Program-made: the position numbers and the translations under genes
Notes under the pieces: generated by a model
Database searches by the model: none
What the model saw: the letters and a program-made list of their open reading frames with translations, nothing else
What the model was told of the DNA's origin: nothing
Part shown: in pieces, positions 17,864 through 45,450 of the stretch
Position numbering within the stretch: position 1 is the stretch's first letter
Layout of the letters: each line of letters begins with the position of its first letter
Origin: Armatimonadota bacterium
Lineage (GTDB): Bacteria; Cloacimonadota; Cloacimonadia; Cloacimonadales; TCS61
Length of the DNA: 64,000 bases
Reading direction: 5' to 3'
Assembly: GCA_013203665.1 (NCBI GenBank)
Contig: JABMPU010000035.1
Coordinates: 113-64,112 of the forward strand

Positions 17864-17870
17864 GCAAGCC

Positions 17871-25724: not shown

Positions 25725-25880
25725 TCCTTTAATGCTTAAATTCCTGCATTATTTGGAAAAAAAATTTTCAGCAACTAACAAACGCTAACAATAACGAACT
25801 TTTATGTTTTTGTTAGATTTTGTTTGTTTTGTTCGTTGCTAATCTTTTTGGTTTCGGTTTAATCGAGTTAGGAGATATGA

Positions 25881-26045
25881 TTGGAAAAATCTAAGAAATT
25901 GAAAGCTGCAATTGCAGGTGTAATCTATTATCTGCAGGAAAAAGAAAGAGACGAAATTAAGAAACCAAATCTGTGGGTACAACTCGGACGTGAACTAATT
26001 ATGAAAAACCGTTTTCTGGTTCAAAGAAGAATGATAAGAAGATAG
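25881..26045 (+). CDS. Possible 54-aa small subunit/linker protein of the carboxylase complex (TTG start)
   Basis: TTG at 25881 has an aggag RBS 7 nt upstream. The translation is MEKSKKLKAAIAGVIYYLQEKERDEIKKPNLWVQLGRELIMKNRFLVQRRMIRR. The segment LKAAIAGVIYY resembles the (L)KPVIAAAIHHH-type C-terminal motif of OadG-like gamma subunits, recalled from memory. It is not in the ORF track (under 60 aa). Confidence 0.3.
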   Translation: MEKSKKLKAAIAGVIYYLQEKERDEIKKPNLWVQLGRELIMKNRFLVQRRMIRR

Positions 26046-26051
26046 GGAAAG

Positions 26052-26369
26052 ATGCTGAAAAAGGATAATGAGATTCTTGAGCTCTTACATCATTTGTTGC
26101 AACAAAAATGTGAAAATTACAAATGTTCCTATCTTTTTGGTTCAAGAATAGGAAATCATTTCAGACCTGAAAGCGATTATGATATTGTAATACTTTTAAA
26201 AGAAATTGATCGAGATACAAAATTCGATATTTACGGTCTTATAAGCGATCTCGAATACAAATATGATATTTTTATCGATACAAAAATATTAACCGAAGAA
26301 GAATTCAGATTCAATCCTTTTTTCTATGAAGAAGTTACCTACAAAGGAATTTGTTATGGTTCAAGATAA
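26052..26369 (+). CDS. Minimal nucleotidyltransferase (MNT-type, Pol-beta superfamily) of a HEPN/MNT toxin-antitoxin pair
   Basis: YLFGSRIGNHFRPESDYDIVILL fits the GS..(x)n..DxD nucleotidyltransferase signature. Its size (105 aa) is typical of MNT antitoxins. Confidence 0.75.
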   Translation: MLKKDNEILELLHHLLQQKCENYKCSYLFGSRIGNHFRPESDYDIVILLKEIDRDTKFDIYGLISDLEYKYDIFIDTKILTEEEFRFNPFFYEEVTYKGICYGSR

Positions 26370-26481
26370 AAAAATATTCATCGATAATTTCTTAAATAAA
26401 TCTAAAGAAGCTCTAATCGATGCTGAAATTAATATTGAAAACAACAGGCTAAATAATGCTCAGAACAGAATTTATTCATGA
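26356..26481 (+). pseudogene. Truncated HEPN-domain partner (41 codons only)
   Basis: The ATG overlaps the MNT 3' end by 14 nt. MVQDKKIFIDNFLNKSKEALIDAEINIENNRLNNAQNRIYS resembles the first helix pair of HEPN toxins (..A..L..A..L.....Y..A.NR.YY). It stops before the R(x)4-6H motif region. Confidence 0.45.
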
Positions 26482-26537
26482 AGAAAGAATATTTGAAAAA
26501 ACTATGAAAACAATAAAATTAAACTACGGAGGAATAA

Positions 26538-28454
26538 ATGAAATTTGATAAACACGGCATTTTGGAAATGGCAAAAATGAATTATGACCCGAACCGTCCG
26601 AAAGCAGAAAATCCGATTAAAATCCAGGACCTTAGTTTTCGTGACGGACATCAATCTCTTTTTGCAACTCGCGGCAGAACAGAAGATATGATCCCGGTGG
26701 CGGAAAGAATGGATGAGATTGGGTTCTACTCGATGGAAATCTGGGGTGGAGCTACTTTTGATACAATGCACCGCTTTTTAAACGAAGACCCCTGGGAAAG
26801 AATCAGAACTCTTAAAAAATATATTAAGAAAACTCCTTTCTCAATGTTGCTCAGAGGGCAGAATGTAGTTGGCTATCGCAATTATGCCGATGATGTTGTG
26901 GAAGCTTTCATCCAGAGAGCCTGCGATAATGGCATTGATATTTTCCGTGTATTCGATGCTCTCAATGATTTCAGGAATTTTGAGACAGCAGTTAGAATAA
27001 TCAAAAAGAATAACAAGCATTTTCAAGGTACGATCTGCTATTCTCTCACAGAACAGAGAATGGGTGGGGATACATATAATCTGGATTACTATCTTGAAAA
27101 AGCAAAACAATTAGAAAGCATTGGTGCAGACACGATTTGCATCAAAGATATGGCTGGATTGGTTTCACCGTATGATGTTTATAACTTAATTCGAGCTCTA
27201 AAGCAGCAAACCAAAATCCCCCTTCATTTGCATACACACTTCACTTCCGGAATGGCAGACTTGGCAATTTTCAAAGCAATTGAAGCTGGAGTCGATATTG
27301 TGGATACATGTATGGCTCCTTATGCATATCGTACCTCTCATCCTGCTATTGAACCTCTTGTTATTTCCTTGCTTGGAACCAATCGCGATACTGGATTTGA
27401 TATAAAAAAACTTGCTGTAATTGACAAGGAAATGGAAAAGATAATTCCCAAATATAAACACCTTCTTGATGACACCAAAAACGCAATAATAGATATAAAT
27501 GTAATTTTACATCAAACTCCGGGTGGAATGCTTTCCAACCTGGTCAATCAGTTACGTCAGATGGATGCGCTGGATAGACTTGAAGATGTTTTTGAAGCTC
27601 TTCCCAAAGTAAGAAAAGAACTTGGTCAGGTTCCGCTGGTTACACCCACCAGTCAAATCGTGGGAATTCAGACCGTAAACAATGTTCTTTACGACAAAGA
27701 AGAAGGAGAATATTCTCAAATATCCGAACAGGTAAAAGATCTTTGTTTTGGATTGTATGGTAAAACCACAAAACCAATCGATCCCAGAGTTCAGAAAAAA
27801 GCTTTGAAAGGTTATCCTCGCGGCGAAACACCGATCACTGCTCGACCCGGTGATATTATCGAGCCGGAACTTCCCAAAGTGAAAGAAGAAGTGAAAGGTT
27901 TGGCAAAAGACCTTGATGACGAAATTATCTGTGCTCTTTATAATTTGACTGGAAAACGTTTTTTAAGATGGAAATACGGATTAGAAGAAGTTCCTGATGA
28001 GGTAAAACCTAAAACTTTGGAAGATGTTAAAAAAGAAAATGAACTTGTTCAAAAAGCTCTTTCCGGGGAACTAACAGCTAAAGGTAAAAAAGATAAACCT
28101 GCTGGATTGCGTTCGTTCGACGTTTACGTTGATGGAGAACATTTCAATGTAGAAGTTGCTGACCCGAATGCAAAGGTTTTCAGCACCGCAGGTCCTAAAA
28201 AAATCGAAAAGAAAGAAGAAGATACTGATGATACAGGCAACCTTCACGCTCCCATACCCGGAATGATTATTGAGTACAAAAAAGAAGTTGGAGATACTGT
28301 GGAAGCAGGTGAAACAGTTGTGGTTCTGGAAGCTATGAAAATGTTCAATAACCTGGCTGCTCCTTGTGATGGTGTGATTAATAAAATTAATTTTAAAGTA
28401 GGAGATTCTGCAGCAAAAGGTGATATTCTTTGCCATATTGAACCAAAAGAATAA
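26538..28454 (+). CDS. Transcarboxylase 5S subunit (pyruvate/oxaloacetate carboxyltransferase) fused to a C-terminal biotinyl carrier (1.3S-like) domain
   Basis: The HMGL-like TIM-barrel start reads IQDLSFRDGHQSLFATR, and DMAGL and HLHTHFTSG are present. The C-terminus carries the biotin attachment motif VVVLEAMKMFNNL. A ggagg RBS lies upstream. Confidence 0.92.
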   Translation: MKFDKHGILEMAKMNYDPNRPKAENPIKIQDLSFRDGHQSLFATRGRTEDMIPVAERMDEIGFYSMEIWGGATFDTMHRFLNEDPWERIRTLKKYIKKTPFSMLLRGQNVVGYRNYADDVVEAFIQRACDNGIDIFRVFDALNDFRNFETAVRIIKKNNKHFQGTICYSLTEQRMGGDTYNLDYYLEKAKQLESIGADTICIKDMAGLVSPYDVYNLIRALKQQTKIPLHLHTHFTSGMADLAIFKAIEAGVDIVDTCMAPYAYRTSHPAIEPLVISLLGTNRDTGFDIKKLAVIDKEMEKIIPKYKHLLDDTKNAIIDINVILHQTPGGMLSNLVNQLRQMDALDRLEDVFEALPKVRKELGQVPLVTPTSQIVGIQTVNNVLYDKEEGEYSQISEQVKDLCFGLYGKTTKPIDPRVQKKALKGYPRGETPITARPGDIIEPELPKVKEEVKGLAKDLDDEIICALYNLTGKRFLRWKYGLEEVPDEVKPKTLEDVKKENELVQKALSGELTAKGKKDKPAGLRSFDVYVDGEHFNVEVADPNAKVFSTAGPKKIEKKEEDTDDTGNLHAPIPGMIIEYKKEVGDTVEAGETVVVLEAMKMFNNLAAPCDGVINKINFKVGDSAAKGDILCHIEPKE

Positions 28455-28480
28455 AAGAAATATTTTGGAAAAAAATTAAA

Positions 28481-28505
28481 GCGACCTTGGAGGTCGCTTT
28501 TTTTT
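28481..28505 (+). terminator. Rho-independent terminator of the transcarboxylase operon
   Basis: gcgacc-ttgga-ggtcgc is followed by 8 T. Confidence 0.8.
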
Positions 28506-28848
28506 AGAGTAAACTGCTTAGCTCACGGATTTTCGCAGATACACACGGATAAAAGGTTTATAAATATTGAAGTATAAAACTAATCTGAAAAGTGAATGGA
28601 TATATAAAATTTTATGCTCGTTACGAAATTCTCGTTTCGTAGCTCAATAGAGACTGAAACTCCGTTTCATTCTTCAAGAGGAACATCAATCTCAATTTTC
28701 CCAACTTCACCGGAAATATAATACCCTTTCGCAAATTTTTTATTCTTGCCTATTATTATAATAGAGTTTTTGAACGGGACGAATAATTTATCTTCGTGTT
28801 GTTTCGCGTCCTTCGTGGCAGGAAAAAAATCTTGACAAAATATAAGCT

Positions 28849-28860
28849 GACTTTAAAGTC
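28849..28860. promoter_or_regulatory. Perfect 12-bp palindrome, candidate TetR operator
   Basis: GACTTTAAAGTC lies between a TTGACA hexamer (28832-28837) and the tetR-family ATG (28893). Confidence 0.4.
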
Positions 28861-28892
28861 GGTGACCGTATGCTCATTGAAAAGGAAAAAGT

Positions 28893-29477
28893 ATGAATAA
28901 AAGACAAATGCAAAAAATGAAAACCAGGGAATTAGTCCTGAGAATTGCCAAAGAGATGTTTATCAAAAACGGTTTTCTAAATACTACTACTTCTCAAATT
29001 GCTCAGAAAGCAGGCATTGCTCATGGTACGCTTTTCCTGCATTTCAAAAAAAAAGAGTCCTTAATTATCGAAATCTTCGATCAGGAATTAGAAGAAATCA
29101 GTTCCACCATTCAAAAACTTGTTTTCGAAGCTATTGATCTGGAGCAACTTCTTAAGCAATACCTGTATCTTATTCAGGAAGAAGAAGATCTGTTTGTTGT
29201 ATTAGCTCGAGAACTACCCTTCTATTCAGAAGAATTACGAAGAAAAATCTTATTTAGAGAATCGATCATCAGAAGTCATTTTCATAAAGCAATAGAACTA
29301 GGTAAGAGAAAAAACAGATATCGAGATGTTGATGTAGCAACAGCAGTTACTTTTCTTTTTGGAGCAATAAACTACTACCTGAGATTAAAACCGATCTTTG
29401 TAAAAGAGGGCAGTGTAATTGAAAAATTCAAACCATTGATCATAAAAACCTTCAAACATTTAATTTTAAAAGATTGA
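28893..29477 (+). CDS. TetR/AcrR-family transcriptional regulator
   Basis: The N-terminal HTH reads RELVLRIAKEMFIKNGFLNTTTSQIAQKAGIAHGTLFLHF. Confidence 0.9.
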   Translation: MNKRQMQKMKTRELVLRIAKEMFIKNGFLNTTTSQIAQKAGIAHGTLFLHFKKKESLIIEIFDQELEEISSTIQKLVFEAIDLEQLLKQYLYLIQEEEDLFVVLARELPFYSEELRRKILFRESIIRSHFHKAIELGKRKNRYRDVDVATAVTFLFGAINYYLRLKPIFVKEGSVIEKFKPLIIKTFKHLILKD

Positions 29478-29489
29478 AATGGAGGAAAA

Positions 29490-30293
29490 ATGCGAAAAAC
29501 AAATTTCTCAAAATTCTTATGGATCTATTCAATTATTATCATATTTATATCTGGTTGCCAATCTCTCCAAACTCAGAATAATACAGATCAGATCGCTCTT
29601 TATTCTGAAAATGGTGCAGATGAAGGCTGCATCACAGCTACAAGCAAAATGTTTGAATGGATGGGTTATGAAGTTACACTGATAAAAGCTGATTCAATCA
29701 ACAATAACAGTCTCAGCAGATTCAGTATTATCTGTTTTCCCGGTGGTGATATGTATCTGTATTCACAGAATATTTCTTCGGAAGGATTTGAAAAAATCAG
29801 GGATTTCATTAATGAAGGTGGAGGATATATCGGAATTTGTGGTGGTGCCTATTTTACGGGTGAGAAGGTTTCGTGGCAAGGCAATCAACTTCCAATGAAT
29901 TCATTAGGAATTTTTCCCGGAACTACTCAAGGTCCAATCAATGAGATCGCTCCTTTTCCAAACTGTAAAATATGCAAAACAAATATAGTTAACACATCAC
30001 ATCCAATCACACATACCGAACCTGATACGACCTGGATCTGTTATTGTTATGGTCCCATGTTCCTACCAAACGAAGGTGCTGAAATAGATATTTTGGGAGT
30101 ATATGAAATAAATGATCAACCTTCAATTGCAGCTTTTGAATATGGTGAAGGGAGAGTATTTATTATTGGAACGCATCCGGAATTCGAAGAAGACAGCGAG
30201 CGGGACGGATTACCTGCAAGCGATAAATTTTATGACCGAGGTTCAGATTGGGATCTGATGGAAAAAGCAGCACAATGGTGTTTGAAAAAATAA
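29490..30293 (+). CDS. Lipoprotein with a BPL_N-like / class-I glutamine-amidotransferase-like domain
   Basis: The lipobox is IIIFISGCQS. IICFPGGDMYLY...IRDFINEGGGYIGICGGAYF follows the BPL_N (biotin-protein-ligase N-terminal, GATase1-like) pattern as I recall it. Confidence 0.5.
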   Translation: MRKTNFSKFLWIYSIIIIFISGCQSLQTQNNTDQIALYSENGADEGCITATSKMFEWMGYEVTLIKADSINNNSLSRFSIICFPGGDMYLYSQNISSEGFEKIRDFINEGGGYIGICGGAYFTGEKVSWQGNQLPMNSLGIFPGTTQGPINEIAPFPNCKICKTNIVNTSHPITHTEPDTTWICYCYGPMFLPNEGAEIDILGVYEINDQPSIAAFEYGEGRVFIIGTHPEFEEDSERDGLPASDKFYDRGSDWDLMEKAAQWCLKK

Positions 30294-30498
30294 TAAAGGA
30301 AAAAAGTCAGTGCAAGTCTGTGGTAAAAAAAAAGAAAATTAGCCGCGAAGTTCGCGAAGGAACGCGAAGAAAAAAACCTTAGTGAAATTTCGTGTTCTTA
30401 GTAGTATAAAAAGAAAAAACAGACAGGATAACAGGATTCACAGGAAAAATAATGAATAATTCTATAATCAAAAAGAATAAATAAAAGAGGAAACAAAG

Positions 30499-32589
30499 AT
30501 GAAAAAGATTCTTATTTTGATTTTCATGGTTTATGCATTCTCAAATGTTTCAGCTCAATTGCAATATCCAGAAACTTCCAAAATTGCAGTTAAAGACACG
30601 CTTCACAAAGCAGTGATAATTGATAATTACCGCTGGTTGGAAGATGGTGAAAACCCGGAAGTCATCAATTGGGAAGAAGAACAGGAAAAACTAACAAGGA
30701 CAGTTCTGGACAGCCTTCCTCAAAGAGAAAAAATGATCAAACGATTCAATGAACTCTGGCGTTATGACGATGTTGGCAGACCAAGCAAAGTATTAAATGG
30801 AGAGAGAATATTCTTATGGGAAAAACGAAAAGATGATGAAAAATGGAGAATTCTTACTAAAGAAAATGAAGAAGCAGAATTTGAAGTTTTGATCGATCCG
30901 AATAATTGGGATGCTGCTGAAACTTTAAGCGGAACTTCTTCTTCCCGCGACGGGAAATATTATGCTTTTGGGAAAGCTGTCGCGGGAGATGAGAACCCGT
31001 TTGTCAGAATAATGGAAGTTGAAACAAAAAGAATTTTACCCGATACTTTGAGAGGTAGGAAACAATATGTTACATCATGGCTGCCGGACAATTCGGGTTT
31101 TTATTATTCAGCTTGTCCTTTAAAGAATGAAGTTCCTGAAGGAGAAGAAAATTACTGGCGTTCGATTTACTTCCATAAACTGGGAACTTCGGCAGATGAA
31201 GATGAAAAGATCTATTACAGTGAAGATAACAAGGAAATGCATCATAGTGTCTGGATCTCCGAGTGTGGAAAATGTACTATTTTTTATCGTGGAATTTTCC
31301 GTAAGAATGAGATCTATTTCAAACGCTCTGATGATGAAGAAATGATTCCTATTACTACTGGTTTTGATGCTTCTTATTCCATAGATATTGTGGATGATAA
31401 AATCCTGATAAAGACAGATAAAGATGCACCCAACGGGAAAGTTTATATTACCGATGTCGCTCAACCGCAGCGAGAATTCTGGCAGGAGTTTTTGCCTGAA
31501 AAAAAAGATAAACTCTATTATATCAGTGCAATCGCCGGTCATATTTATGCAGTATATCAGCACAATGCTTACACGGTTATTAAGATATATTCTCTTAAAG
31601 GTGATTATATCCGGGATTTATCTTTTCCAACTTTAGGAACCGGATATGTCAGTGGTTATTGGTCACAAGACGATATTTGGGCAAGTTTTTCATCATTTAC
31701 TTATCCAAGCGTTACTTATAAATATGACTTTCAAAATGACAAGTTAGATATTTATAAAGAATTTCCATTGGAAATAGATGTTGAGAATTTTACTGCTGAG
31801 CAAGTCTGGTATCATTCAAAAGACGGAACACCAGTTTCAATGTTCCTTGTTCTTAGGAAAGATATGGAAAAAGATGGAAACAATCCTGTTAGACTTTCCG
31901 GTTATGGTGGATTCAACCATTCCCAGACTCCATATTTTTCAACATCGAATATTGTCTGGTTAGAAGCCGAAGGAATGCTGGCAATTCCAAATCTGCGCGG
32001 TGGTGGAGAATACGGAGAAAAATGGCATGAAGCAGGAATGAAGGAAAACAAGCAGAATGTTTTTGATGATTTTATTGCTGCTGCAGAATGGCTCATCGAA
32101 AATAAATATACAAATCCTGAAAAACTGGCGATTTCAGGAGGAAGTAACGGAGGTCTTCTGGTGGGAGCTGTAACCGTTCAAAAACCCGAATTATTCAAAG
32201 TAGTGAATTGTGCAGTTCCTCTTCTCGATATGATCCGCTACCACAAATTCGGTCCTGCCAGATATTGGATAGATGAATACGGAAGCGCTGAAGATCCACA
32301 GCAGTTCGAATATCTCTATAAATATTCACCATATCACAATGTTGTTGATGGAACGGATTATCCTGCAATTCTGATTTCAGCAGGAGAAAATGATGCTCGC
32401 GTTGATCCGCTTCATTCCCGTAAGATGGTTGCCCGAATGCAGGAAGCTAATCCAAATGGAGAACCGATCCTGCTCATGATCAGGAGAGACTCCGGTCATG
32501 GTGGAGGTACAACTCTCTCGATGCGTATAGAAAGAGCTGCTGATACCTGGGCATTTTTGATGAATGAATTAGGAATGAGTTTGGAGTAA
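30499..32589 (+). CDS. Prolyl oligopeptidase (S9A family), secreted
   Basis: A signal peptide is followed by the N-terminal pattern DNYRWLED. The catalytic region includes ISGGSNGGLLVGA, GENDARV and DSGHGGG. Confidence 0.9.
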   Translation: MKKILILIFMVYAFSNVSAQLQYPETSKIAVKDTLHKAVIIDNYRWLEDGENPEVINWEEEQEKLTRTVLDSLPQREKMIKRFNELWRYDDVGRPSKVLNGERIFLWEKRKDDEKWRILTKENEEAEFEVLIDPNNWDAAETLSGTSSSRDGKYYAFGKAVAGDENPFVRIMEVETKRILPDTLRGRKQYVTSWLPDNSGFYYSACPLKNEVPEGEENYWRSIYFHKLGTSADEDEKIYYSEDNKEMHHSVWISECGKCTIFYRGIFRKNEIYFKRSDDEEMIPITTGFDASYSIDIVDDKILIKTDKDAPNGKVYITDVAQPQREFWQEFLPEKKDKLYYISAIAGHIYAVYQHNAYTVIKIYSLKGDYIRDLSFPTLGTGYVSGYWSQDDIWASFSSFTYPSVTYKYDFQNDKLDIYKEFPLEIDVENFTAEQVWYHSKDGTPVSMFLVLRKDMEKDGNNPVRLSGYGGFNHSQTPYFSTSNIVWLEAEGMLAIPNLRGGGEYGEKWHEAGMKENKQNVFDDFIAAAEWLIENKYTNPEKLAISGGSNGGLLVGAVTVQKPELFKVVNCAVPLLDMIRYHKFGPARYWIDEYGSAEDPQQFEYLYKYSPYHNVVDGTDYPAILISAGENDARVDPLHSRKMVARMQEANPNGEPILLMIRRDSGHGGGTTLSMRIERAADTWAFLMNELGMSLE

Positions 32590-32724
32590 AATATTCGCGA
32601 TATTTTGTAATACTGGTTACGAAGTTTTTCTTCGTAATCCTCTTGAATGCGAAGTTAAACTTTGCAAACAATTACATTCCCAAGAAATATTGGGAACGGG
32701 AACTGAACGAGAATACAAGGAGGA

Positions 32725-33015
32725 ATGATGAAAAAAGTTTATATCTGTAAAAGTTGCGGAAAGGTTATGAAAGATGCTGAAGATTTTTCCGGAGGAGAGA
32801 TTGGAAAAGATTATTGCAGCAATTGCACAGACGAATTTGGATATCGTAAAAGTTACTCGCATATAATTAAAGATACAAAAGAATTCCTGATCAAACACCT
32901 CTCAATTTCAGAAGAGGAATCTGAAAAAATGGCTCTGGAAAATATAGCAAGAATCCCTTTCTGGGCTCAAAAGGAGAAAATCATGTTATCAAAAAAAAAA
33001 AATTGTAATTACTGA
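32725..33015 (+). CDS. Zn_ribbon_2-like small zinc-ribbon protein
   Basis: YICKSCGKVMKDAEDFSGGEIGKDYCSNCTDEFG (CxxC...CxxC) is followed by a helical tail ending IPFWAQKE. An aaggagg RBS lies upstream. The listed stop at 33015 exists only because of the A12 tract frame. Confidence 0.7.
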   Translation: MMKKVYICKSCGKVMKDAEDFSGGEIGKDYCSNCTDEFGYRKSYSHIIKDTKEFLIKHLSISEEESEKMALENIARIPFWAQKEKIMLSKKKNCNY

Positions 33016-35896
33016 TGTTGGCAGTACTACAACCAAAGCTTTACTCCTTCAAAGATTCAACACAAAATACAAAATTATATCTTTGCAACATGCTGCCACA
33101 ACTGTGGAAAAACCCGTAGAAGATGTGAATATCGGAGTTTACGAAGCTATCAAAAAACTGGAAAAAGATGCTGATACTATAATTCTTACAAACGATGCTT
33201 CCCCGGAAAATCTTAAATTTAATGAAGAAACACTTTATATTTCTACAAGTAGTGCAGGCGGCGGACTCCAGATTCTCGTGATTGGTCTCACACTGTTCGA
33301 TTCTGCCAGTAGTGGAAAAAGAACAGCTTATGGTGCCGGTGGAGTAATTTTAGATACTTTTGCCATTGATGACAAACGCAGCAGTCTGGAACAAATGCAG
33401 GCAATGGGAATCCTTCATCCTGATATTATTCTGATGTGTGGTGGCATTGATGGCGGTGCAATTGCTTCAATCCTGAGATTAGGTGAAATACTGCAGCTTG
33501 CCAATCCCAAACCTAAATTTGGTGATAAAAACCAGATACCCCTTGTTTTTGCAGGCAATGAAAAAGCTCAGAGTTTTATTGCCGGATTATTTCAGAAACG
33601 CTTCGATCTTTACATTGTACCTAACATCCGTCCCACATTAACAGATGAAAACCTGGTTCCTGCACGCGAAAAGATTCATAAACTTTTTATGGATAACGTG
33701 ATGGAGCAAGCTCCCGGTTATTCCAAACTGAAAGACTGCGTAGATGATGCTATCATACCAACACCAACCGGAGTTATCCGCTCTCTGCAGCTTGTGAGTG
33801 AGCAACTCGATGAGAATGTGATGGCTGTGGATATTGGAGGAGCAACAACCGATATTTTTTCTAATATTCTAGGAGAATACTTTAGAACTGTAAGTGCTAA
33901 TTATGGTATGAGTTACAGCATCTCAAACGTTTTTAAGGACAGTGGATTTAATAATATTAAAAACTGGCTGCCAAAGGAACTCGATGAAACTTATATTGCC
34001 AATTATATTGCCAATAAGATGCTCTATCCGACCTATACTCCAACCGATTCATATCAAAATTCTATCGAGCATGCTGTAGCCAGAGAAGCAATTCGAATGA
34101 GCAAAAAGCAACACATGGATATGAATTTTAATACAAAACAGGTTGGATTTTTGGATAAATTAAAACAGAAAAACAGCGATTTAGATAAAATCACTGAAGC
34201 GTTTTACTTTGAAAAAGCACTTGAAAGCAGAAAGTTTCACATGCACGATATCAATATCCTGATTGGATCCGGAGGAGTTTTGGCTCACACAGAAAACAAT
34301 ACTCAAGCTCTGGCAATAATTTATGATGGATTCCGACCTGAAGGTATTACCGAAATCTGGAAAGACAAACATTTCATCTCTCCGCACATGGGGAAACTCA
34401 GTGCTGTAGATGAAAAACTTGCCACCCAGCTTCTTACTGAAGAATGCTTTGAAAAAATCGGGTTGGTGATTCGTCCGATAGGTAGAAAATGGAAACAAGA
34501 TGCACCTGTAATGAATATTGAAATAAACGGAAACTCGTTAACAATCAAGGTTGGAGATGTTTATTATTTTCCCAATGATAATAAGAAACAAAAAGATATT
34601 TCCATCTCTTTGGAAAAGGGTTTCTTTCTGAATATTGAAAAATATGACTTCAAATCTGAACTTCCGATTTTTATTGATGCAAGTCTTCATATAGATTTTC
34701 AGATAGAAAATAAATGTATGAATCTTTACAATTTTGCTTTCTCGCAGAAAAATCTCGAAACGGAATTCCAAAATTTTATTCCAAGAAAAAATATTGTAAA
34801 AGGCACCCAGTCCCATAAAGTTGAACTTCCTTATGAAGGTTCAATTTTAGTTAAAGAAGGTGATACAGTAACTTCCGGAACAGTGATAGGTGAGAATCTC
34901 TTCGATCCGCCAAAGGTATATGTGATTTCGCTTTTCGATAAAACATATCTGCGACTAAACCCGGATAATATCGAAAAATCATTGAGAATTAAGGAAGGTC
35001 AGGAAGTAAAATACGGTCAGCGAATCGCTGAGGTCGGTTCCCGCAGGCTCATTGATGAAATCCAGTTCCAGCACTTTTATTATGATTCACCGGTTCGCGG
35101 CAGAGTGGAAAAAATCAATTTTGATTCTGGCACAATAATCATGCGCGAAATCCAGGATTATTCTTCTAAACCAAAGACCATAAATATTTCCAAAAAACTG
35201 AATATAAAACCGAAATTAATAACCAGGTATCTGAAGAAAAATCTCGGAGATTTTGTTTTTGCAGGAGATATTCTCGCTTCCCGTCTTATTGATGTTCAGG
35301 ATGGAACTCACCCTATGCTGGTTTCTGTGCCAACCACAGGAACCATAAAAAATGTCGATACGGAAAAAGGCACAGTAACCATCCAATATGATAAAGATCC
35401 TTATCTTCGATATGCTGGAGTGACAGGAAAAATTGCAGAAATCGAACCGGACTATTCTGCGACTATATCTTATGAGGGTTCAACTTTGAAAGGGATAATC
35501 GGTTTCGGAAACGAGGCTTGGGGAGAACTGAAATATATAAAAGAATATAAAGATATTTCAAAATGCAGTGAAAATGAAATAGTGGTTATTTCCGGCAAAA
35601 TCGATATCAGATTCCTTAAAAAGGCAGAAAAGCAAAAAGTGAAAGGAGTGATTGCCGCTTCTATCGATAACAAAGAACTGGTCGATTTCACAGGAGAAGA
35701 AATCGGAGTAGCTCTTACAGGAAACGAAAATATTCCTTTCCCATTAATTATTACAGAGGGTTTTGGTGATTTTAAGATGGATGCTGATTATGATAATTTC
35801 TTCATAGAAAATGAAGGAAACTTGATATACATAAATGGACATACCCAAATCCGGGCAGGAGTAACCAGACCGAAGATGATTGTGATGGAGAATTAG
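32983..35896 (+). CDS. GlmL/MutL-like (glutamate-mutase component L family, ASKHA-fold) ATPase with a roughly 470-aa C-terminal extension; reading frame broken at an A12 tract (32991-33002)
   Basis: ATG 32983 has an aaggag RBS 7 nt upstream. With one A fewer the product reads MLSKKKIVITDVGSTTTKALLLQRF..., which is the family's phosphate-1 motif. As sequenced, the first in-frame start after the tract is TTG 33083, downstream of that motif. Later motifs are VDIGGATTDIFS and ILIGSGGVLAH. Confidence 0.65.
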
Positions 35897-35946
35897 TTGA
35901 ATTAGTTGAATTGGTTGAATTAGAGCGAGGTTAAAGGATACTATTA

Positions 35947-36348
35947 ATGAAACGCAAAGGCACCAGCATAATTTTTGTGAACGATAAGCAGCAGGTTCTG
36001 CTCTTCCTGCGGGATGACAAACCTGATATCATCTATCCCAATATGTGGGATGTTCCCGGTGGTCATGTAGAACCGGATGAAACGCCGGAACAATGCATTA
36101 TCCGCGAAATGAAGGAAGAAATGGATATCGACTTGAAGGATTTTCATCTTCTTTATGTGAAAGAATTCAAAGACCGCATCGAATACACATATTGGAAAAA
36201 CGCCAACTTGAATATTGATGAGATAAACTTGATGGAAGGTCAATGCTTGAAATGGTTTACTCGAAAAGAAGCGAAGAATACTGAACTGGCTTACGGATTT
36301 AATGAGATTGTGGAGGAGTTTTATAATTGGATAGGAGAGAAAATATGA
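35947..36348 (+). CDS. NUDIX hydrolase
   Basis: The Nudix box is GGHVEPDETPEQCIIREMKEEMDI. Confidence 0.9.
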   Translation: MKRKGTSIIFVNDKQQVLLFLRDDKPDIIYPNMWDVPGGHVEPDETPEQCIIREMKEEMDIDLKDFHLLYVKEFKDRIEYTYWKNANLNIDEINLMEGQCLKWFTRKEAKNTELAYGFNEIVEEFYNWIGEKI

Positions 36349-36917
36349 ACCGATGTCCTTGGGGAACTGCTGATGATTTATACATCCGCTACCACGATGA
36401 AGAGTGGGGTGTTCCTATTTATGATGACCGAAAGCAATTTGAATTTTTAGTATTAGAATCTGCACAAGCAGGATTGAGCTGGCATACAATATTGAAAAAA
36501 CGGGAAAATTACCGGGCAGCTTATGATGGATTCGATGTGGAGAAAGTGGCAAAATATGATGAAGAAAAAATCGAAGAATTAATGCAGAATGCCGGCATTA
36601 TCCGCAATCGCAAAAAGATAGAAGCTTCTATAAATAACGCCAGGATATTCCTGGAAATCCAAAAAGAATTCGGTAGTTTCTGCAATTATCTCTGGGGATT
36701 TGTAGATGGTAAACCGATTGTAAACAAATGGGCTGAAATCTCCCAGATTCCCGCCAGAACCGAACTTTCCGATCGTATCAGCAAAGATATAAAAAAGCGT
36801 GGATTCAAATTTCTGGGTTCCATTACCATTTATTCTCACATGCAGGCAACAGGTCTCGTGAATGATCATTTGAAGAATTGCTTTCGCTGGAAGGAATGTC
36901 AGAAATATAAAAAATGA
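36345..36917 (+). CDS. tag: DNA-3-methyladenine glycosylase I
   Basis: MNRCPWGTADDLYIRYHDEEWGVPIYDDRKQFEFLVLESAQAGLSW is the Tag signature. The start at 36345 has a ggagag RBS. Confidence 0.92.
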   Translation: MNRCPWGTADDLYIRYHDEEWGVPIYDDRKQFEFLVLESAQAGLSWHTILKKRENYRAAYDGFDVEKVAKYDEEKIEELMQNAGIIRNRKKIEASINNARIFLEIQKEFGSFCNYLWGFVDGKPIVNKWAEISQIPARTELSDRISKDIKKRGFKFLGSITIYSHMQATGLVNDHLKNCFRWKECQKYKK

Positions 36918-36958
36918 AAGTAAAAAAAGTTTATTGAAATTGGATATAAGGAGTTCCA

Positions 36959-37693
36959 ATGCCCTGTTTCTACACTCCAGAACTAAAAGAACAAGATTCA
37001 AAAATTATGATCTCAGGTGAAGAATATCATCATATTATCGATGTTTTCAGAAAATCAATTGAATCTGAAATTCTGCTAACCAACGGAAAAGGACTATTAG
37101 CAAAAACAAAAATCACATCAATAAACAAAAAAAAATTAACTGTTTCAATACTTTCGATTAATAAGGAAAAGCAATCTCAACCTAAAATCGCAGTTGCCTT
37201 CTCTATCTTAAAAAATAAACATGATTTTTTGATTATTGAAAAACTTACTGAACTGGGAATCAAAGAATTTTTTCCTATCATTACAGATAGGACTGTAAGA
37301 AAACCATCAAAAAACACAACCATAAAATTTAAAAAAACTGCTATTGCTGCAATAAAACAGTGCGATAATTCATTTTTACCAAAAGTTAATAACACAACCA
37401 GCTTGACAGAATTTTTAGTAAATATAAAAGAAAATTATAAGCCTGTCGTTGCCTTGGAAGTGGGAGAAAACAGACAGCTTTGGGAAGTTTTAAGTTCATT
37501 AAATGAGGAAAATATTTGTTTGGTTATCGGTCCGGAAGGTGGTTTTACTAATGAAGAAATTGAGATATTCAAGGACAAGAATATTCAAGCATTCAATTTG
37601 GGGAATCATATCGTACGAGCGGAAACTGCAGCGATTGCTGCTTCTGCACAGCTATTAGGATATTTTCTAAAGAAAAATCCGGAATATTATTAA
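36959..37693 (+). CDS. rsmE: 16S rRNA (uracil1498-N3)-methyltransferase
   Basis: The N-terminal PUA-like region reads GEEYHHIIDVFR, and the SPOUT C-terminus reads LVIGPEGGFTNEEI...LGNHIVRAETAAI. Confidence 0.85.
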   Translation: MPCFYTPELKEQDSKIMISGEEYHHIIDVFRKSIESEILLTNGKGLLAKTKITSINKKKLTVSILSINKEKQSQPKIAVAFSILKNKHDFLIIEKLTELGIKEFFPIITDRTVRKPSKNTTIKFKKTAIAAIKQCDNSFLPKVNNTTSLTEFLVNIKENYKPVVALEVGENRQLWEVLSSLNEENICLVIGPEGGFTNEEIEIFKDKNIQAFNLGNHIVRAETAAIAASAQLLGYFLKKNPEYY

Positions 37694-37712
37694 AAAAAAT
37701 CAGGAGGAAATC

Positions 37713-38096
37713 ATGGAAAAGAGCGAAAGCAAAGTAACAAAAACTGTTAGAGATGGTGTAATCAAAGCCTATAATTTAGGTGAAGACATTGTTCATGCTG
37801 TTGGCAGCATCACCAAAGAAATCATTAAAACATCAAAAGATGAAGAACTTACTACCAAAGAAAAAGTTCAAACTCTGGCAAAAGAAGCTTTGGAAGGAGC
37901 AAAACAGGGAGCAAAAGTAGTTCATTCAGAAAGCAAAGAATTTGCACCCAAAGCAGGTAAAGCTATTTTTGAAGCGATTAAATTTTCCGCTCCTAAAGTT
38001 GCCCACTTTGCTAAAGAAGCTTTCACAGGAATTTACGAAGGTGCTAAAGATGTTTATGAAACTAAAAAAGGTGAAATAAAGGAAAAAGAAGAATAG
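37713..38096 (+). CDS. Hypothetical Lys/Glu/Ala-rich helical protein
   Basis: It has a good RBS (aggagg). The composition is repetitive (KEA.EGAK.GAK). No recognisable domain was seen. Confidence 0.5.
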   Translation: MEKSESKVTKTVRDGVIKAYNLGEDIVHAVGSITKEIIKTSKDEELTTKEKVQTLAKEALEGAKQGAKVVHSESKEFAPKAGKAIFEAIKFSAPKVAHFAKEAFTGIYEGAKDVYETKKGEIKEKEE

Positions 38097-38128
38097 CAGA
38101 AATATCTCAAAATTTTCCCATCAATTTT

Positions 38129-39226
38129 ATGAAAATAGCTCGACCAACTTTGCTTTTAGATAAAGAGAAGTGTTGGAAAAATATTCAGGAAATGGTTTTA
38201 AAAGCCAAAAAATTTGATCTGAAGTTTCGTCCACATTTCAAGACTCATCAATCTGCCGGGATTGGTAAATGGTTTAAAGATTTTGAAGTAAATTCTATCT
38301 CGGTATCTTCTGTTGATATGGCGATTTATTTTTTCCAAAATGGATGGAATGATATCACCATAGCCTTTCCTTTCAATCAATTAGAAATTGATGAAGTTAA
38401 TAAATTAGCTCAACAAATTAACTTAAATGTTCTTTTGGTTTCTTCGGGATCAATAGAATTTTTAAAGAAAAATTTAAAGAACAAAATTGGATTTTATATC
38501 GAAGTTGATACAGGTTATCACCGCTCAGGAATTCGAGCTGAAAATATTAATGAATTTGATTCAGTTTTAAAGCAATCTAAAGATATTCCCTTATTAGATT
38601 TTAAAGGTTTTCTAAATCATTCAGGAAATTCATATCATGCAAAATCACAAAAAGAAATTTCGCAAATCCATCATAAATCTCTCCAAAAAATGAAAGAGTT
38701 GAGATCTCGATACTTATCTCAATTTCCCCAACTTGAGCTCTCGATCGGAGATACACCTTGTTGCAGCCTGATGAATGATTTTACCGGTATTGATGAGATT
38801 CGCCCCGGGAATTTCGTTTTTTATGATGTCATGCAATATCGGTTGGGTTCATGTTCAATCGGGCAAATTGCAGTTACTCTTGCCTGCCCTGTCGTTGCAA
38901 AAAATCAAGAACTAAAAGAAATCATAATTTATGGAGGAGCAGTTCATCTTTCCAAAGAATATATTCTACAGAATGGTTCGAAATGTTTTGGATACATTGT
39001 TAGATTGAGAAAAGATGGTTGGGAAAAACCTCTTAAAAATACTTTCATAATATCTCTTTCGCAGGAACACGGAATCATTAAAACTACAGATGAAGAATTT
39101 GATAAAATTCATATTGGAGATATCATCGGAGTTTTACCTGTTCATTCTTGCTTAACTGCAAATTTAATGAAACAATATTTAACTTTGGATGAAGAAATTA
39201 TCCCTCATATGCAAAAAAAATGCTAA
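38129..39226 (+). CDS. PLP-dependent D-amino-acid aldolase/deaminase-like enzyme (alanine racemase N-terminal fold, D-TA/DSD1 family)
   Basis: LKFRPHFKTHQS carries the PLP lysine context. The barrel has the alr N-terminal fold. The C-terminus reads GVLPVHSCLT, as in D-threonine aldolase/D-serine dehydratase-like proteins. Confidence 0.65.
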   Translation: MKIARPTLLLDKEKCWKNIQEMVLKAKKFDLKFRPHFKTHQSAGIGKWFKDFEVNSISVSSVDMAIYFFQNGWNDITIAFPFNQLEIDEVNKLAQQINLNVLLVSSGSIEFLKKNLKNKIGFYIEVDTGYHRSGIRAENINEFDSVLKQSKDIPLLDFKGFLNHSGNSYHAKSQKEISQIHHKSLQKMKELRSRYLSQFPQLELSIGDTPCCSLMNDFTGIDEIRPGNFVFYDVMQYRLGSCSIGQIAVTLACPVVAKNQELKEIIIYGGAVHLSKEYILQNGSKCFGYIVRLRKDGWEKPLKNTFIISLSQEHGIIKTTDEEFDKIHIGDIIGVLPVHSCLTANLMKQYLTLDEEIIPHMQKKC

Positions 39227-39279
39227 ATGATAAATGCTAAGTGCTACAATGCTAAATGCTAAAAAGCTAAGAGCTAAAT

Positions 39280-40299
39280 ATGTTTATAGATTACGCAAAA
39301 ATCAGAGTTGAGTCCGGCAAAGGCGGAAACGGTTGCGTCAGCTTCCGACGCGAAAAATTTGTATCAAAAGGTGGACCCGACGGCGGTGATGGTGGAAAAG
39401 GGGGAAATGTAATTGTGGTAGGTGATGAGAATGTAAACACCTTATTAGCATATCGTTACAATCACTTTTACAAAGCAAAGAACGGCAGGAACGGAATGGG
39501 TAACAATAAAACCGGAGCCAGAGGAGAAGACATCATCCTTAGATTTCCTTTAGGAACCGAGATCTATGATATCACACATGGAGAGAAAAATAAAATTGCC
39601 GAAATTACCCATAATAACGAGAAAATCGTGATTGTCAAAGGCGGGAATGGCGGCAGAGGAAACACACGATTCAAAAGTGCAACAAACAAAGCTCCACGTT
39701 TTGCCAAGCCCGGCGGAAACAGCGAATATTTTGAATTGGAATTGAACTTGAAATTGATGGCTGATGTCGGTTTAGTCGGTTTCCCAAATGCCGGAAAATC
39801 CACTTTGTTGAGCGTAGTTTCCGAAGCTCATCCCAAAATTGCAGACTATAGATTTACAACTTTAGAGCCTACATTAGGAGTTGTTCATATTGGAAATTTT
39901 GAAACTTTCGTGATGGCAGATATTCCCGGTTTGATCGAAGGAGCTCACGATGGTAAAGGTTTAGGAGTCCAGTTTTTAAAACATATTCAGCGAACCAAGA
40001 TTCTGCTTTTTATGATCGATGTAAATTCTATAGATCCTTTTGATGATTACCAGGTTTTGAAAAAGGAACTTCATCTTTATGATCCTTATCTGGATAAAAA
40101 GCCGCATGTTATCGTTCTCAGCAAAATCGACACGGTTCCGGAAAATGAAAAGAAAGATTTAGTGCAAATTATGAAAGGTGAATTTGAAGAAAAGCTTCAT
40201 GAACAGATTTTTCCGATTTCTTCAGTTTCCGGTGAAAATATAAGAGAGATGAAGAAGAAACTTATTAATATTCTAAAAAAAGATGATGAAGAAAATTAA
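39280..40299 (+). CDS. obg: GTPase Obg/CgtA
   Basis: MFIDYAKIRVESGKGGNGCVSFRREKF..GGPDGGDGGKGG is the Obg fold. The G1 motif is GFPNAGKST, with DIPGLIEGA and SKID downstream. Confidence 0.95.
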   Translation: MFIDYAKIRVESGKGGNGCVSFRREKFVSKGGPDGGDGGKGGNVIVVGDENVNTLLAYRYNHFYKAKNGRNGMGNNKTGARGEDIILRFPLGTEIYDITHGEKNKIAEITHNNEKIVIVKGGNGGRGNTRFKSATNKAPRFAKPGGNSEYFELELNLKLMADVGLVGFPNAGKSTLLSVVSEAHPKIADYRFTTLEPTLGVVHIGNFETFVMADIPGLIEGAHDGKGLGVQFLKHIQRTKILLFMIDVNSIDPFDDYQVLKKELHLYDPYLDKKPHVIVLSKIDTVPENEKKDLVQIMKGEFEEKLHEQIFPISSVSGENIREMKKKLINILKKDDEEN

Positions 40300-41371
40300 A
40301 GCCTGGATTAAGCTGCTCGAAACTCCTGAAATTGGCAATGCAAAAGCAATAAGATTAACTGAAATTCTGGGTGAGCCTAAAAATTTCATCGGCAAACCGG
40401 ATGACAGACTAACTGACATCGATTTTATTTCCGAATCCGCTAAAGAGAACCTGGCAAAAGGTTCCAAGCTGGAAAACTGGGATAAAATTGCAGAGCTAAT
40501 GGAAACTTTCGAAATCAAGTTCATTTCAATTCTGGATAAAGATTATCCGACATTATTAAAATCAATCTACACTCCACCACCCTTTTTATTCTACAGGGGA
40601 AAGCTGGATAAAGATATATTCCGAAGAACCATCGCCATAGTGGGAACACGAAAGCCGACAAATTACGGCAAAATAATGACAAAAAGAATTGGTAGTAAAC
40701 TGGTTCAAGCAGGATTTACAATTGTAAGCGGTCTTGCCTATGGAATCGATACGATAGCTCATTTATCGACCTTTGAAAATAATGGCAGGACGATTGCAGT
40801 TCTGGGAACCGGTTGTGACCAGATTTATCCCCCGATAAACCGTGAGATTGCAGAAAAAATCATAGAAACCGGGGCTTTGATTTCAGAATACCTTCCCGGT
40901 CAAAAGGTTGAAAAATGGAATTTTCCCACTAGGAACAGGATAATCAGCGGCATAAGTTTGGGAAGTTTGATCATCGAAGGTTCAAAGAAAAGTGGAGCAC
41001 TTCTAACTGCAAAATTCGCTTTAGACCAGAATCGTGATGTTTTTGCTCTTCCCGGAGATATTAACAGGGAACAATCTGCAGGTCCGAATTATTTGATTAA
41101 ATTGGGGGCAAAAATCGTAACCTGCCCGGATGACATCCTGGAAGAATACGACCTTGTTCTCGATAGACCGGAGAAGCCATTTCCAAAACTTTCTGAGAAA
41201 GAAGACAACATCTACCAGGTTCTTTTGGAGAACAAACCTGAAATCCAGTTTGATGATTTAATGTTGAAAACCGGCTATTCCGTTGGTGAACTTTCCACAG
41301 TTCTGCTTTCCCTGGAATTGAAAAGTATAATTAAGAAAGTTCCGGGGAATAAGATTGTGCCGTTGTATTGA
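40283..41371 (+). CDS. dprA: DNA-processing protein DprA
   Basis: AIVGTRKPTNYG, SGLAYGIDTIAH and the SGALLTA pattern are present. It overlaps the obg 3' end by 17 nt. Confidence 0.9.
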   Translation: MMKKIKAWIKLLETPEIGNAKAIRLTEILGEPKNFIGKPDDRLTDIDFISESAKENLAKGSKLENWDKIAELMETFEIKFISILDKDYPTLLKSIYTPPPFLFYRGKLDKDIFRRTIAIVGTRKPTNYGKIMTKRIGSKLVQAGFTIVSGLAYGIDTIAHLSTFENNGRTIAVLGTGCDQIYPPINREIAEKIIETGALISEYLPGQKVEKWNFPTRNRIISGISLGSLIIEGSKKSGALLTAKFALDQNRDVFALPGDINREQSAGPNYLIKLGAKIVTCPDDILEEYDLVLDRPEKPFPKLSEKEDNIYQVLLENKPEIQFDDLMLKTGYSVGELSTVLLSLELKSIIKKVPGNKIVPLY

Positions 41372-41413
41372 TTTTTTTATTGACTAAAGAATTAGTATAA
41401 AATTAAAGAAAAT

Positions 41414-44400
41414 ATGACAAACATCAAAACTAACGAACGAGAATTAGCAAGCAAGATTGCTCAATGGTTCAACGAGCAAATAAATAGAGGAAAATATCCT
41501 TTTACATCTGCAAGTTGTGAACCTGGAATTAAAGTAGGAAAAACAACTTATTTCGGTGATATTATAATTTGGAAAAACAGGGAAATAGATAAAGCATTTT
41601 CCTATATTGAACTCAAACCACCATTTGGAGAAACTGAGAATTTAGAACGATTCAGAGAAAAAGCTATTCAGTTAAAAGTTAAAATCGCTTACACTTGGGA
41701 TTTTCAATCTTTGAATGCTTATGAAATAAAAGATAATAAAATTGAATTGTCTGCAACAGAAACATATTCTGTTCTAACGAATATTGAAGATTGGAAAAGA
41801 GGTGATAAACAAGCTTATATTAAAGCTTTCATTTCCAGGATTTGTGATGAGTTGTTAAATTTTTCCGAAAAAGGAAAGTTCCGAAAATTTAAACCTGAAA
41901 AGCATTATTTTATCCGCTTCTTACGAAATATCGTTGATGATCTGATTCCTTTATTCGAGCAATTTATCAGAGTATTCCATAAACAAAAAGAATTCAAAAG
42001 CATAATTAATAGGTTTGTTGCTGAACAGGGAATTGCCTATCCAAATGATGAAGATTTTTACAGATTAATTGCCAGCCAACGAGTTTATGGCTTGATTACA
42101 AAAATCATTTTTTATCTAACCATAAAAAGACACTTTAAAGAATTGCCCGAGTTATATTCTGAAGATGAGAAAGATCTCGAAGCAAATTTGAATTCTGCTT
42201 TTTCTAATGCTCGGGAAATTGACTGGCAGGCAGTTTTTGAAACTGATCCGATAGAAGAATTGGGAATTCCAAAGGAAGCTTATTCTTCTTTAAATGAATT
42301 GTTCTCACATCTAAAAATCTATAATTTCGGGGCTTTACCGGAAGATGTTATCGGTGAATTATTTGAAGAAATAATTGATCCCAAAAGACGACACGAATTA
42401 GGACAATATTTCACTCGCGAAGATCTCGTTGATTTAATCATTGCTACAATTGTGAATGATAAAGATAAAATCTATGCAGACCCGACTTGCGGTTCGGGAA
42501 CATTTCTCATCAGGTTGTATGATAGATTGAAATTTTTAAGCGGATACAGAATGAAGCATGAACAAGTTTTAGACAGGATCTGGGGAATCGATATTGGAAA
42601 ATTTCCCGCTGAACTTTCAACGATAAATTTATTCAGGCAATCTCCGAGTAATTTTGAAAATTTTCCCCGCATTATTCATAAAGATATTTTTGAAATATCT
42701 GTAGGACAGGAAATCGAATTTCCTCCGAATAATGTGAATTACAATCAGAGATATAACAAAATCAAAATAAAAATTCCTGAATTTTATGGTTTGGTTGGAA
42801 ACTTTCCGTATATCAAGCAGGATCTGATAGAAAAGAATGTGAAAGGATATAAGCAATTTCTTACTAAATTGTTGGCTTATGAATACCTCGGAGATTATCC
42901 GAAATTATTTAAATTAAACCATATTAAAGAAGCTGAATTCAAGAACTTCTTAGAAAAACCAGAATCAGAAAGAAAGAAACGAATTGATCACTGGTTAAAA
43001 AATAAATATGTTGAATTAAAATTATCAGGACAAGCTGATATTTACACTTACATTTTTATTCACACTGCAACTCTTCTTAGTAAAGCCGGTTCATTTGCCA
43101 TAATTACTTCAAATTCTTGGTTAGATGTCGCTTATGGTTCTGTTCTCAAAAAATTCTTTTTAGACCATTTCAAGATCAAGATGATAATTGCTTCCTGGGC
43201 AGAACCTTGGTTTGATGATGCTGCTGTGAATACCGTGTTCACAATTCTGGAAAAATGCGATGATGAAAAAGAACGAGATAACAACCTTGTTCATTTTGTA
43301 AAACTAAAGAAAAAATTAGAAGAACTAATACCGGAAAGAAATCTTAAAATCGAATCTAATAATCGCTGGAGAAGAATTGACGGAATTGTAAACACTATTG
43401 AATCTGCTCAATTTAAAGCTGATAAGATCGATGAGAAAATATCTTCTTTTGAAAATGAACAAATGCGTGTTCGAATGGTGAAACAGGAAAAACTCTTAGA
43501 AGAGCAAACATCGCAAAACGATCTTTCCAAATGGGGTAAATATCTAAGAGCACCGGATGTTTATTTTGATATTCTGGAAAAATGCAAAGATAAACTTGTT
43601 AGTCTCAAAGATATTACAAAAAGCTGCCAACGTGGTAAGACATCTGGAATTACAGATTTCTTTTATTTGCAAAATGTAAATGATGAATTCACAAATATTT
43701 CAAAAAAATGGCAAGGTAAAATTGAAAAATGTTACTTGAAAAAAGTAATAAAATCACCAAAAGAAAGTAAAAGTATAGAAATAAAACAGGAAAATTTAAA
43801 ATATTATTTATTTGTATGTAATAAAAGCAAAAATGAACTAAAAAAACTTAATCATTTTGGAGCTCTTACTTATATTGATTGGGGTGAAACCCAAAGAACC
43901 AAAAATAATGTACTTTGGCCGGAAGTTCCCTCTGTGCAGGGAAGACAATATTGGTGGTCATTTGAAATACGTGAACCATCAAAAGTATTATGGACCGAAA
44001 TGTGCAACGATAATTTTAGAACGTTACATAATAGTAAAAAAGTAATAGAAAGTGATAAATTTTATAGAATTGATACTGAAGATAAAAAGCTTTCTGAGAA
44101 TATTGGATACTATTTAAATTCAACTATTTGCTTTCTATTCCGAGAATTGAATTCGTTCATTTCATTAGGAGACGGTGTCATAAAAACACCTGTTTACGAA
44201 TTACAGAATTTAGAAATTCCTAGTAGTATTAAAGAATTCAAATATAAAAATGATAAACTATTATCTCGTAATATAGCAAAAATATTTAAAGAAGTTAAAC
44301 TCAAAGATCGTCAAGAACTGGACAAAGCAGTTTTACAAGCACTCGGTTTAAATCCGGAAGAATATCTTCAACGTATTTATGATGGCCTAACTCAAATGGT

Positions 44401-44914: not shown

Positions 44915-45450
44915 ATTTAAAGACTATCCTAGCTCATATCTTAAAACACTTTAAAGAATACGAAATTGGCTATGGTAAAACCAGATTACTTAAAATAGCT
45001 TATTTGGTAGAGCTTTTCTATTATCGTAATGAAATGAAGCGATTGACCAATGAAGAATGGATTTTTTATAAATTTGGTCCGTATTTAATGAATTATGATA
45101 ATATCCTTAATGATAAAAAGATATTTGTTGTTGAAGACATTAAAGATGATTTTACAAAAGTTACATTAAATGAAAGTGCTACAATTCCTGTATTACCATC
45201 TGAAATTAGTCTTATTATTAATCATTCAGTAAAAAAATATGGAAACATGGATTTCTATAAATTATTGGATTATGTTTATTATGATACAGAACCAATGATA
45301 GATGTTAATAAAAGATTAGATAAATTGGATTTCAGCTCAGTTAAACCCCAAAAATATTACGAAATCAAAGAATTTAAAAATTTAGATAAAATACTTGAGA
45401 AATTAAATTTTAAATATCAAGAAAAATTTAAAAATGCCAGAAAAATATAA
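44908..45450 (+). CDS. Panacea-domain (DUF4065, SocA/GepA-like) protein, candidate antitoxin
   Basis: GKTRLLKIAYLVELFYYRNEMKRLTNEEWIFYKFGPY follows the DUF4065 pattern (t.lKLqKLlYyaq...g.pL..e.f.AW.yGPv). The later stretch VKKYGNMDFYKLLDYVYYDTEPM matches the second conserved block. The ATG overlaps the methylase stop (ATGGTAG). Confidence 0.6.
   Translation: MVDLKTILAHILKHFKEYEIGYGKTRLLKIAYLVELFYYRNEMKRLTNEEWIFYKFGPYLMNYDNILNDKKIFVVEDIKDDFTKVTLNESATIPVLPSEISLIINHSVKKYGNMDFYKLLDYVYYDTEPMIDVNKRLDKLDFSSVKPQKYYEIKEFKNLDKILEKLNFKYQEKFKNARKI

Follow-up and report, generated by a model that had tools for sequence, protein, structure and literature searches.

A one-base difference in a poly(A) tract divides a conserved zinc-ribbon and GlmL/MutL-like fusion gene of Cloacimonadota into two apparent genes

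Bacterial RNA polymerase slips on runs of at least nine A residues (PMC5009743). The closest described parallels to the tract analyzed here are the large multidomain genes tssM1 of Citrobacter rodentium and tssM3 of Yersinia pseudotuberculosis, in which a run of 11 to 12 A's yields a truncated N-terminal product at one length and the full-length protein at another (PMC4256274). The A11 run of tssM1 gives ~20-25% frameshifted product, with mRNAs carrying 10 to 15 A's, and it is the out-of-frame genomic state that works there, both products having been shown to be needed (PMC4256274). Frameshifts at poly(A) tracts are also tolerated via transcriptional slippage in Buchnera and Blochmannia, according to the passages of PMC5009743 that cite these cases. 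When transcription slips at A/T runs, the outcome is mostly an insertion of bases (PMC5574713). Long A runs are a known technical difficulty as well: Illumina length calls at A/T homopolymers worsen with tract length and with the number of PCR cycles, and PCR stutter is biased to deletions (PMC11878640).

In the window (the whole 64-kb stretch of DNA that was analyzed), an A12 homopolymer occupies positions 32991-33002 of the plus strand, within the sequence CAAAAGGAGAAAATC ATG TTA TCA AAA AAA AAA AAT TGT AAT TAC TGA. Like tssM1 and tssM3, the locus is a large multidomain gene that contains a run of 11 to 12 A's, and the length of the run determines whether the product is full length or an N-terminal truncation (PMC4256274). 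It differs from tssM1 in that an in-frame A11 allele is found in the same strain, that relatives are without the tract, and that the case is known from DNA alone. With Buchnera and Blochmannia, it shares an AT-rich genome (36% GC here), a poly-A run of at least nine, and the disruption by a frameshift of a gene that is otherwise conserved. However, those are small, bottlenecked endosymbiont genomes with many tracts, whereas the window has one coding run longer than nine and its KKK codons avoid all-AAA.

We rebuilt the tract in silico at every length from 9 to 15 A's. As sequenced, the frame of the ATG at 32983-32985 stops at the TGA at 33013-33015 (plus strand), which is also where the zinc-ribbon frame ends when the tract is A12. 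The upstream ORF (32725-33015, plus strand) is therefore 96 aa long as sequenced, comprising a zinc-ribbon module and an out-of-frame tail, NCNY, before the stop. With A11, the product was 1056 aa from ATG 32725 and 970 aa from ATG 32983; with A14, it was 1057 and 971 aa, respectively; all remaining lengths gave only 93 to 97 aa. The first-pass annotation was thus right that the tract frameshifts a GlmL/MutL-like gene, a long product being obtained only with A11 or A14, and that tract length decides between a stop of the zinc-ribbon ORF and read-through. It was also right that the DVGSTTTK segment is stranded upstream of TTG 33083; this segment belongs to the Pfam MutL domain. Its placement of the tract at codons 3 to 7 did not hold, since the tract runs from the third base of S89 to the first base of I93 in a 1056-aa fusion gene.

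Comparison with orthologues demonstrates a one-gene architecture: a single predicted gene at 32725-35896 (plus strand), starting at 32725 or 32728, has been split into the zinc-ribbon ORF and the "GlmL/MutL-like" ORF. With A11, this gene encodes 1056 aa and comprises Zn_ribbon_2, a Lys-rich joint, a GlmL/MutL-like ASKHA domain, and a beta-rich C-terminal part of ~480 aa. The closest homologues, all from Cloacimonadota, are 1041 to 1063 aa long and carry PF12674 and PF13941 on one chain. Across the junction, they read ...IPFWAQKEK(L/M/I)MLSKK(K/R)I(V/I)ITDVGSTTTK, and the window with A11 matches them in length and register. In a survey of GTDB species representatives, 33 loci had the zinc ribbon, 34 were without it, and 4 were cut by a contig end. 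The ribbon was in frame with TD[VI]GSTTTK in 33/33 ribbon-bearing representatives, with products of ~1055 aa, and it was out of frame at none of the surveyed loci. At the 34 unfused loci, no upstream zinc-ribbon ORF was found.

The unfused homologues, which are ~968 aa long and present in other Cloacimonadota, account for the appearance of a gene start inside the fusion. They begin at a Met that precedes the T of ITDxGSTTTK by 9 residues, most often with a GGAG-type motif ahead of it, and P0048 and P0062, like the window, have a Met at that distance. In the window, this is Met87, encoded by the ATG at 32983-32985 (plus strand) and homologous to the start codon of the unfused genes. The AAGGAG at 32971-32976 (plus strand), six bases ahead of it, codes for K83-E84 in the conserved QKEK motif, as seen in the junction alignments of the orthologues. 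A Shine-Dalgarno-like motif precedes the start at 22 of the 34 unfused loci and is retained at 8 of the 33 fused ones. Since Met87 and AAGGAG stand where the start and Shine-Dalgarno sequence of the unfused genes stand, ATG 32983 is the fossil start of an ancestral unfused gene, and AAGGAG is probably its relic Shine-Dalgarno. The earlier gene model was correct in that the ATPase is frameshifted but not in taking ATG 32983 with AAGGAG as a gene start beside a separate zinc-ribbon gene, given the one gene of ~1055 aa in orthologues. As a side observation, AAGGAG and Met87 are a trace left by the fusion event, and translation starting internally at this site could give an isoform without the zinc ribbon.

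We used PF13941, TIGR01319, and NF040745 for the family assignment. The repaired product matched Pfam MutL (PF13941) at 324.9 bits against a cutoff of 27, covering profile positions 1 to 450 of 450, and residues 7 to 80 of the upstream ORF matched Zn_ribbon_2 (PF12674) at 32.6 bits against a cutoff of 22.5. The MutL match begins at profile position 1 and includes the ASKHA phosphate-1 motif DVGSTTTK (33014-33037, plus strand), in which D97, G99, S100, T101, T103, and K104 are invariant in 61 homologues. The protein thus resembles the GlmL/MutL glutamate mutase accessory protein in its full-length PF13941 match, its ASKHA fold, and its phosphate-1 motif. In contrast, its length is double, because a zinc ribbon is present at the N terminus and ~480 aa extend the C terminus. 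It also falls below all the NCBIfam cutoffs (GlmL, Or-4, TIGR01319), scoring 203.6 against 475 bits for the GlmL equivalog and 130.1 against 204 for the glmL_fam subfamily. No glutamate mutase gene (glmS, glmE) or B12 mutase gene lies within 10 kb, where the neighbors are TetR, BPL_N, S9 peptidase, NUDIX, Tag, and RsmE. "GlmL-like" is a label of fold and family, not of function.

A confident AlphaFold2 model built on the 61 homologues (pLDDT 83, pTM 0.80) places a helix of the zinc-ribbon module (78-89) so that it leads straight into the first ASKHA strand (92-98). A Foldseek search of the PDB returned only ASKHA proteins (acetophenone/acetone carboxylase subunits, DnaK, FtsA, PilM, glycerol kinase); a sequence search of the PDB gave no match. 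The beta-rich C-terminal part (~480 aa, residues ~575-1056, 34400-35896) has no curated family and no PDB match; it shows subthreshold matches of a barrel-sandwich/biotin-lipoyl-like kind and an invariant C-terminal motif, NGHTQIRAGVxRP. The architecture of zinc ribbon, ASKHA domain, and this C-terminal part appears confined to Cloacimonadota and a few neighboring lineages.

Assemblies of the same strain demonstrate the A11 state. We compared the window, over 5848-18123 and 22728-64000, with JGI 3300032737 (L006, L090) and Logan SRR28106079 (L007, L089). The contigs without the tract showed neither mismatches nor gaps (L089, window 5848-18123, 12,276 bp; L090, window 43109-64000, 20,892 bp). 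L006 (window 22728-45896, 23,168 bp) and L007 (window 25810-41716, 15,906 bp) had 0 mismatches and 1 gap each, and A12 versus A11 was the sole difference between the window and the JGI and Logan assemblies over ~56 kb. P0131 (1056 aa, Logan SRR28106079) has the same sequence as the window translated with A11, as does P0124 (1055 aa, JGI 3300032737) apart from the first Met; the 90% cluster around P0001 contains the split products together with P0131 and P0124.

We then considered the history of the tract, which is demonstrably not conserved. At the Lys-rich joint, relatives at 90 to 93% identity have AAAAAAAAGAA or AAAAAAAGAA (K-K-R). The joint reads (C/G)AAAAAAAGAATC (A7) in the 93% protein-identity relatives L001, L009, L010, and L030, TCAAAAAAAAGAATT (A8GAA) in the 90% DNA-identity relative L008, AAAAAGAAAA in the 78% relatives, and TCT AAA AAA AAA CTG (A9) in L003-5; all of these are in frame. 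Junction A runs measure 0 to 8 in the fused GTDB species representatives (n = 33) and 9 in L003-5. A G interrupts the tract in L001, L008, L009, L010, and L030, and the pure A run is therefore recent and not conserved. By this comparison, the uninterrupted A11 is the result of a recent G-to-A change in this strain, AGA to AAA (Arg to Lys). When metagenomes were scanned with a pattern in which the tract could have any length, the only contig recovered was from a 90% relative with A8GAA, which gave no population length series.

The A12 run is the longest homopolymer in the 64-kb window, followed by an intergenic A10, and it is the only coding run longer than nine. A base-composition model predicts 0.09 runs of at least A12 in 64 kb. 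The observed counts for A7 to A10 are 36, 13, 6, and 1, which makes a run of A11 or A12 an unremarkable tail event. The window contains 12 A/T runs of at least 9, and 7 of these 12 fall in its intergenic portion, which makes up ~12% of it. Among the 25 longest ORFs, none of the nine KKK triplets is all-AAA, while AAA accounts for 79% of Lys codons. This parallels E. coli, in which AAA_AAA_AAA is avoided in coding sequence and occurs a single time (PMC5009743); all-AAA Lys runs are evidently costly and unstable. A second long tract, the intergenic A10-TT-A9 at 17820-17840, has the same lengths in the Logan assembly, which is independent; the difference between assemblies is thus confined to the longest tract and does not extend to every long run.

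A12 is very probably nothing more unusual than a homopolymer error or slippage variant of one base, and not a special coding mechanism. Between these two, we infer that a homopolymer-length miscall in the MAG consensus is probable, if only slightly so. The working allele would then be A11, coding for a single 1056-aa protein. The G-to-A change would have made the Lys-rich joint an uninterrupted A11, and one extra A in the longest homopolymer of the region would shift the frame at the joint between the domains. As in short-read metagenome homopolymer errors, the discrepancy is one base in the longest A run and the only one among otherwise identical assemblies, and the other length restores an ORF collinear with all orthologues. 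The worsening of Illumina length calls with tract length and PCR cycles (PMC11878640) also favors a miscall. Strong conservation of the gene, with a mean column identity of 60% in 61 homologues, makes it unlikely that most cells carry a knockout allele. Other points sit less well with a miscall. The window carries an insertion, whereas PCR stutter favors deletions. IMG also has the A12 contig, with gene calls of its own (P0128, P0133), and this contig may therefore stem from a different sample processed by a similar pipeline. Of the three explanations offered by the first-pass annotation, the plain one, a homopolymer error, nevertheless fares best, A11 in the same-strain assemblies being their only difference from the window over ~56 kb. 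Uniform A11 had been proposed as the mark of such an error; it is nearly what we found, A11 being present, at the level of assemblies, in the other same-strain data.

The A11 tract probably slips faster than the other 56 kb mutates by substitution (an estimate), and a real A12 variant without an accompanying SNP is therefore quite possible. A12 would in that case be a true slipped-strand mutation that is now the majority allele in the population sampled, either as a newly arisen loss-of-function or pseudogene allele or as on/off heterogeneity at a newly hypermutable tract. We regard this as a serious but tentative alternative. The finding that the assemblies differ in nothing but the length of the tract fits it, since a hypermutable site would be the first to show a difference, as do the recent loss of the interruption and the absence of all-AAA KKK triplets, like the avoidance in E. 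coli (PMC5009743). Against it, A11 is present in two other assemblies, each reported for 2 samples, and no orthologue of this highly conserved gene is disrupted. The product, a predicted cytoplasmic ATPase-like protein, is presumably not that of a typical contingency gene, and with relatives lacking the tract, no long-term selection for switching is visible. A11 versus A12 as the sole difference over ~56 kb would be expected alike of a frame-toggling tract at a phase-variable locus and of a consensus error; the tract is not maintained across strains or species, as the relatives carry no uninterrupted long run. Phase variation would apply here in a loose sense only, without evidence of adaptiveness. 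If A12 is real, it would illustrate on a small scale how a single G-to-A change can create a hypermutable tract, still a known phenomenon.

Use of the tract for expression, as in tssM1, is improbable. RNA polymerase slippage or ribosome sliding on A11 or A12 would have to yield two products from one locus, namely the complete fusion protein and, separately, a zinc-ribbon protein of 96 aa. The homopolymer is long enough, with at least nine A's in coding sequence (A12 in the window, A11 in L006 and L007) as for slippage by bacterial RNA polymerase (PMC5009743). Extrapolating from the tssM1 data, some mixed mRNA would be expected whichever DNA allele is real, and one added A in mRNA from the A11 allele would give exactly the 96-aa zinc-ribbon product. 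However, an out-of-frame layout is neither normal nor conserved, being found in 0/33 fused representatives while the same-strain assemblies are in frame. Nor is the slippery tract conserved, with runs of 0 to 8 in the representatives and 9 in L003-5. Moreover, rescue of A12 would need -1 or +2, whereas slippage at A/T runs mostly inserts (PMC5574713). No downstream stimulatory RNA structure was detected (fold z-score, -0.53). Without conservation or structure, and with the wrong direction, any slippage is likely to be noise rather than design. Promoter-like sites near the junction occur at a chance count, and both terminator-like sites there are on the minus strand. Nothing in the data suggests a programmed signal. 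Both phase variation and rescue by transcriptional slippage, raised in the first-pass annotation, lack support from conservation, with 0 orthologues out of frame and no run longer than nine. By analogy with tssM1 and tssM3, the new A11/A12 tract could be imagined as a slippage-prone switch, acting at the DNA level, through RNA polymerase, or both, that sets the ratio of zinc-ribbon module to fusion; this is a distinctly doubtful proposal. In such a scheme, initiation at Met87 behind the relic Shine-Dalgarno might produce a further, third isoform, one devoid of the zinc ribbon.

That the window encodes two real genes, a 95- or 96-aa zinc-ribbon protein and an ATPase starting at ATT 33002 or TTG 33083, is very improbable: the model is the one used by GenBank (NQV17334.1/NQV17335.1) and by the IMG calls, and unfused homologues are known, but the same-strain A11 assemblies and all 33 ribbon-bearing orthologues have a single ORF, the unfused loci have no ribbon ORF upstream (0/34), and both starts were rejected, TTG 33083 because it drops the invariant phosphate-1 motif and ATT 33002 because only poly-A precedes it, the Shine-Dalgarno-like AAGGAG being 25 nt away.

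The homopolymer reading, with A11 as the working allele, bears chiefly on annotation. The GenBank and IMG gene models are exact translations of the window (NQV17334.1, 95 aa; NQV17335.1, 964 aa; IMG calls of 82 and 937 aa). NQV17334.1 is the 96-aa ORF taken from its second Met. The downstream frame (33002-35896, plus strand), which holds the ATPase domain and the C-terminal part, is called as 964 aa from ATT 33002 in GenBank and as 937 aa from TTG 33083 in IMG; P0133 is identical to the ORF that begins at 33083, and P0121 to the translation from 33005 with an M placed in front. Exact searches with the A12 products (the 96-aa ORF, P0121, P0122, and P0133) returned no record, and the literature yielded nothing relevant on the sample, contig, or protein accessions. 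The noncanonical ATT start of NQV17335.1 (33002-33004), directly after the A run, hides the frameshift from pseudogene flagging. Correction of these models is the main value of the analysis: a single conserved gene of 1056 aa is divided in both GenBank and IMG, and its sequence should be taken from the A11 form. The frameshift at the joint leaves two ORFs that each look complete, a case in which a frameshift at a fusion joint mimics a pair of well-formed genes, down to what looks like a ribosome-binding site and a start codon.

Several minor observations concern the record and its surroundings. The window agrees without difference with an NCBI MAG contig of 97,745 bp that is labeled 'Armatimonadetes bacterium' (HQ534_02155), while the close homologues of the gene studied are all from Cloacimonadota; the taxonomic label is probably wrong. 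The labels of L010 ('Armatimonadota') and L018 ('Bacteroidales') are odd in the same way. A TetR-family regulator gene (28893-29477 in the window) recurs just upstream of the zinc-ribbon-GlmL-like gene in L001, L003-L005, and L007. In L001 it lies immediately next to that gene, in L003-5 it adjoins or overlaps it, and BPL_N-like and S9 peptidase genes intervene in the window and L007. Elsewhere in the window, two genes of restriction-modification type are very large, one being Type ISP-like and the other an Eco57I-like N6-methyltransferase, with a SocA_Panacea-domain gene and a MazG-like gene near them; the coordinates of these restriction-modification-type and nearby genes are 13219-16335 (minus strand), 41414-44914 (plus strand), and 44908-45450 (plus strand). 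Together, the restriction-modification-type, SocA_Panacea, and MazG-like genes suggest defense islands.
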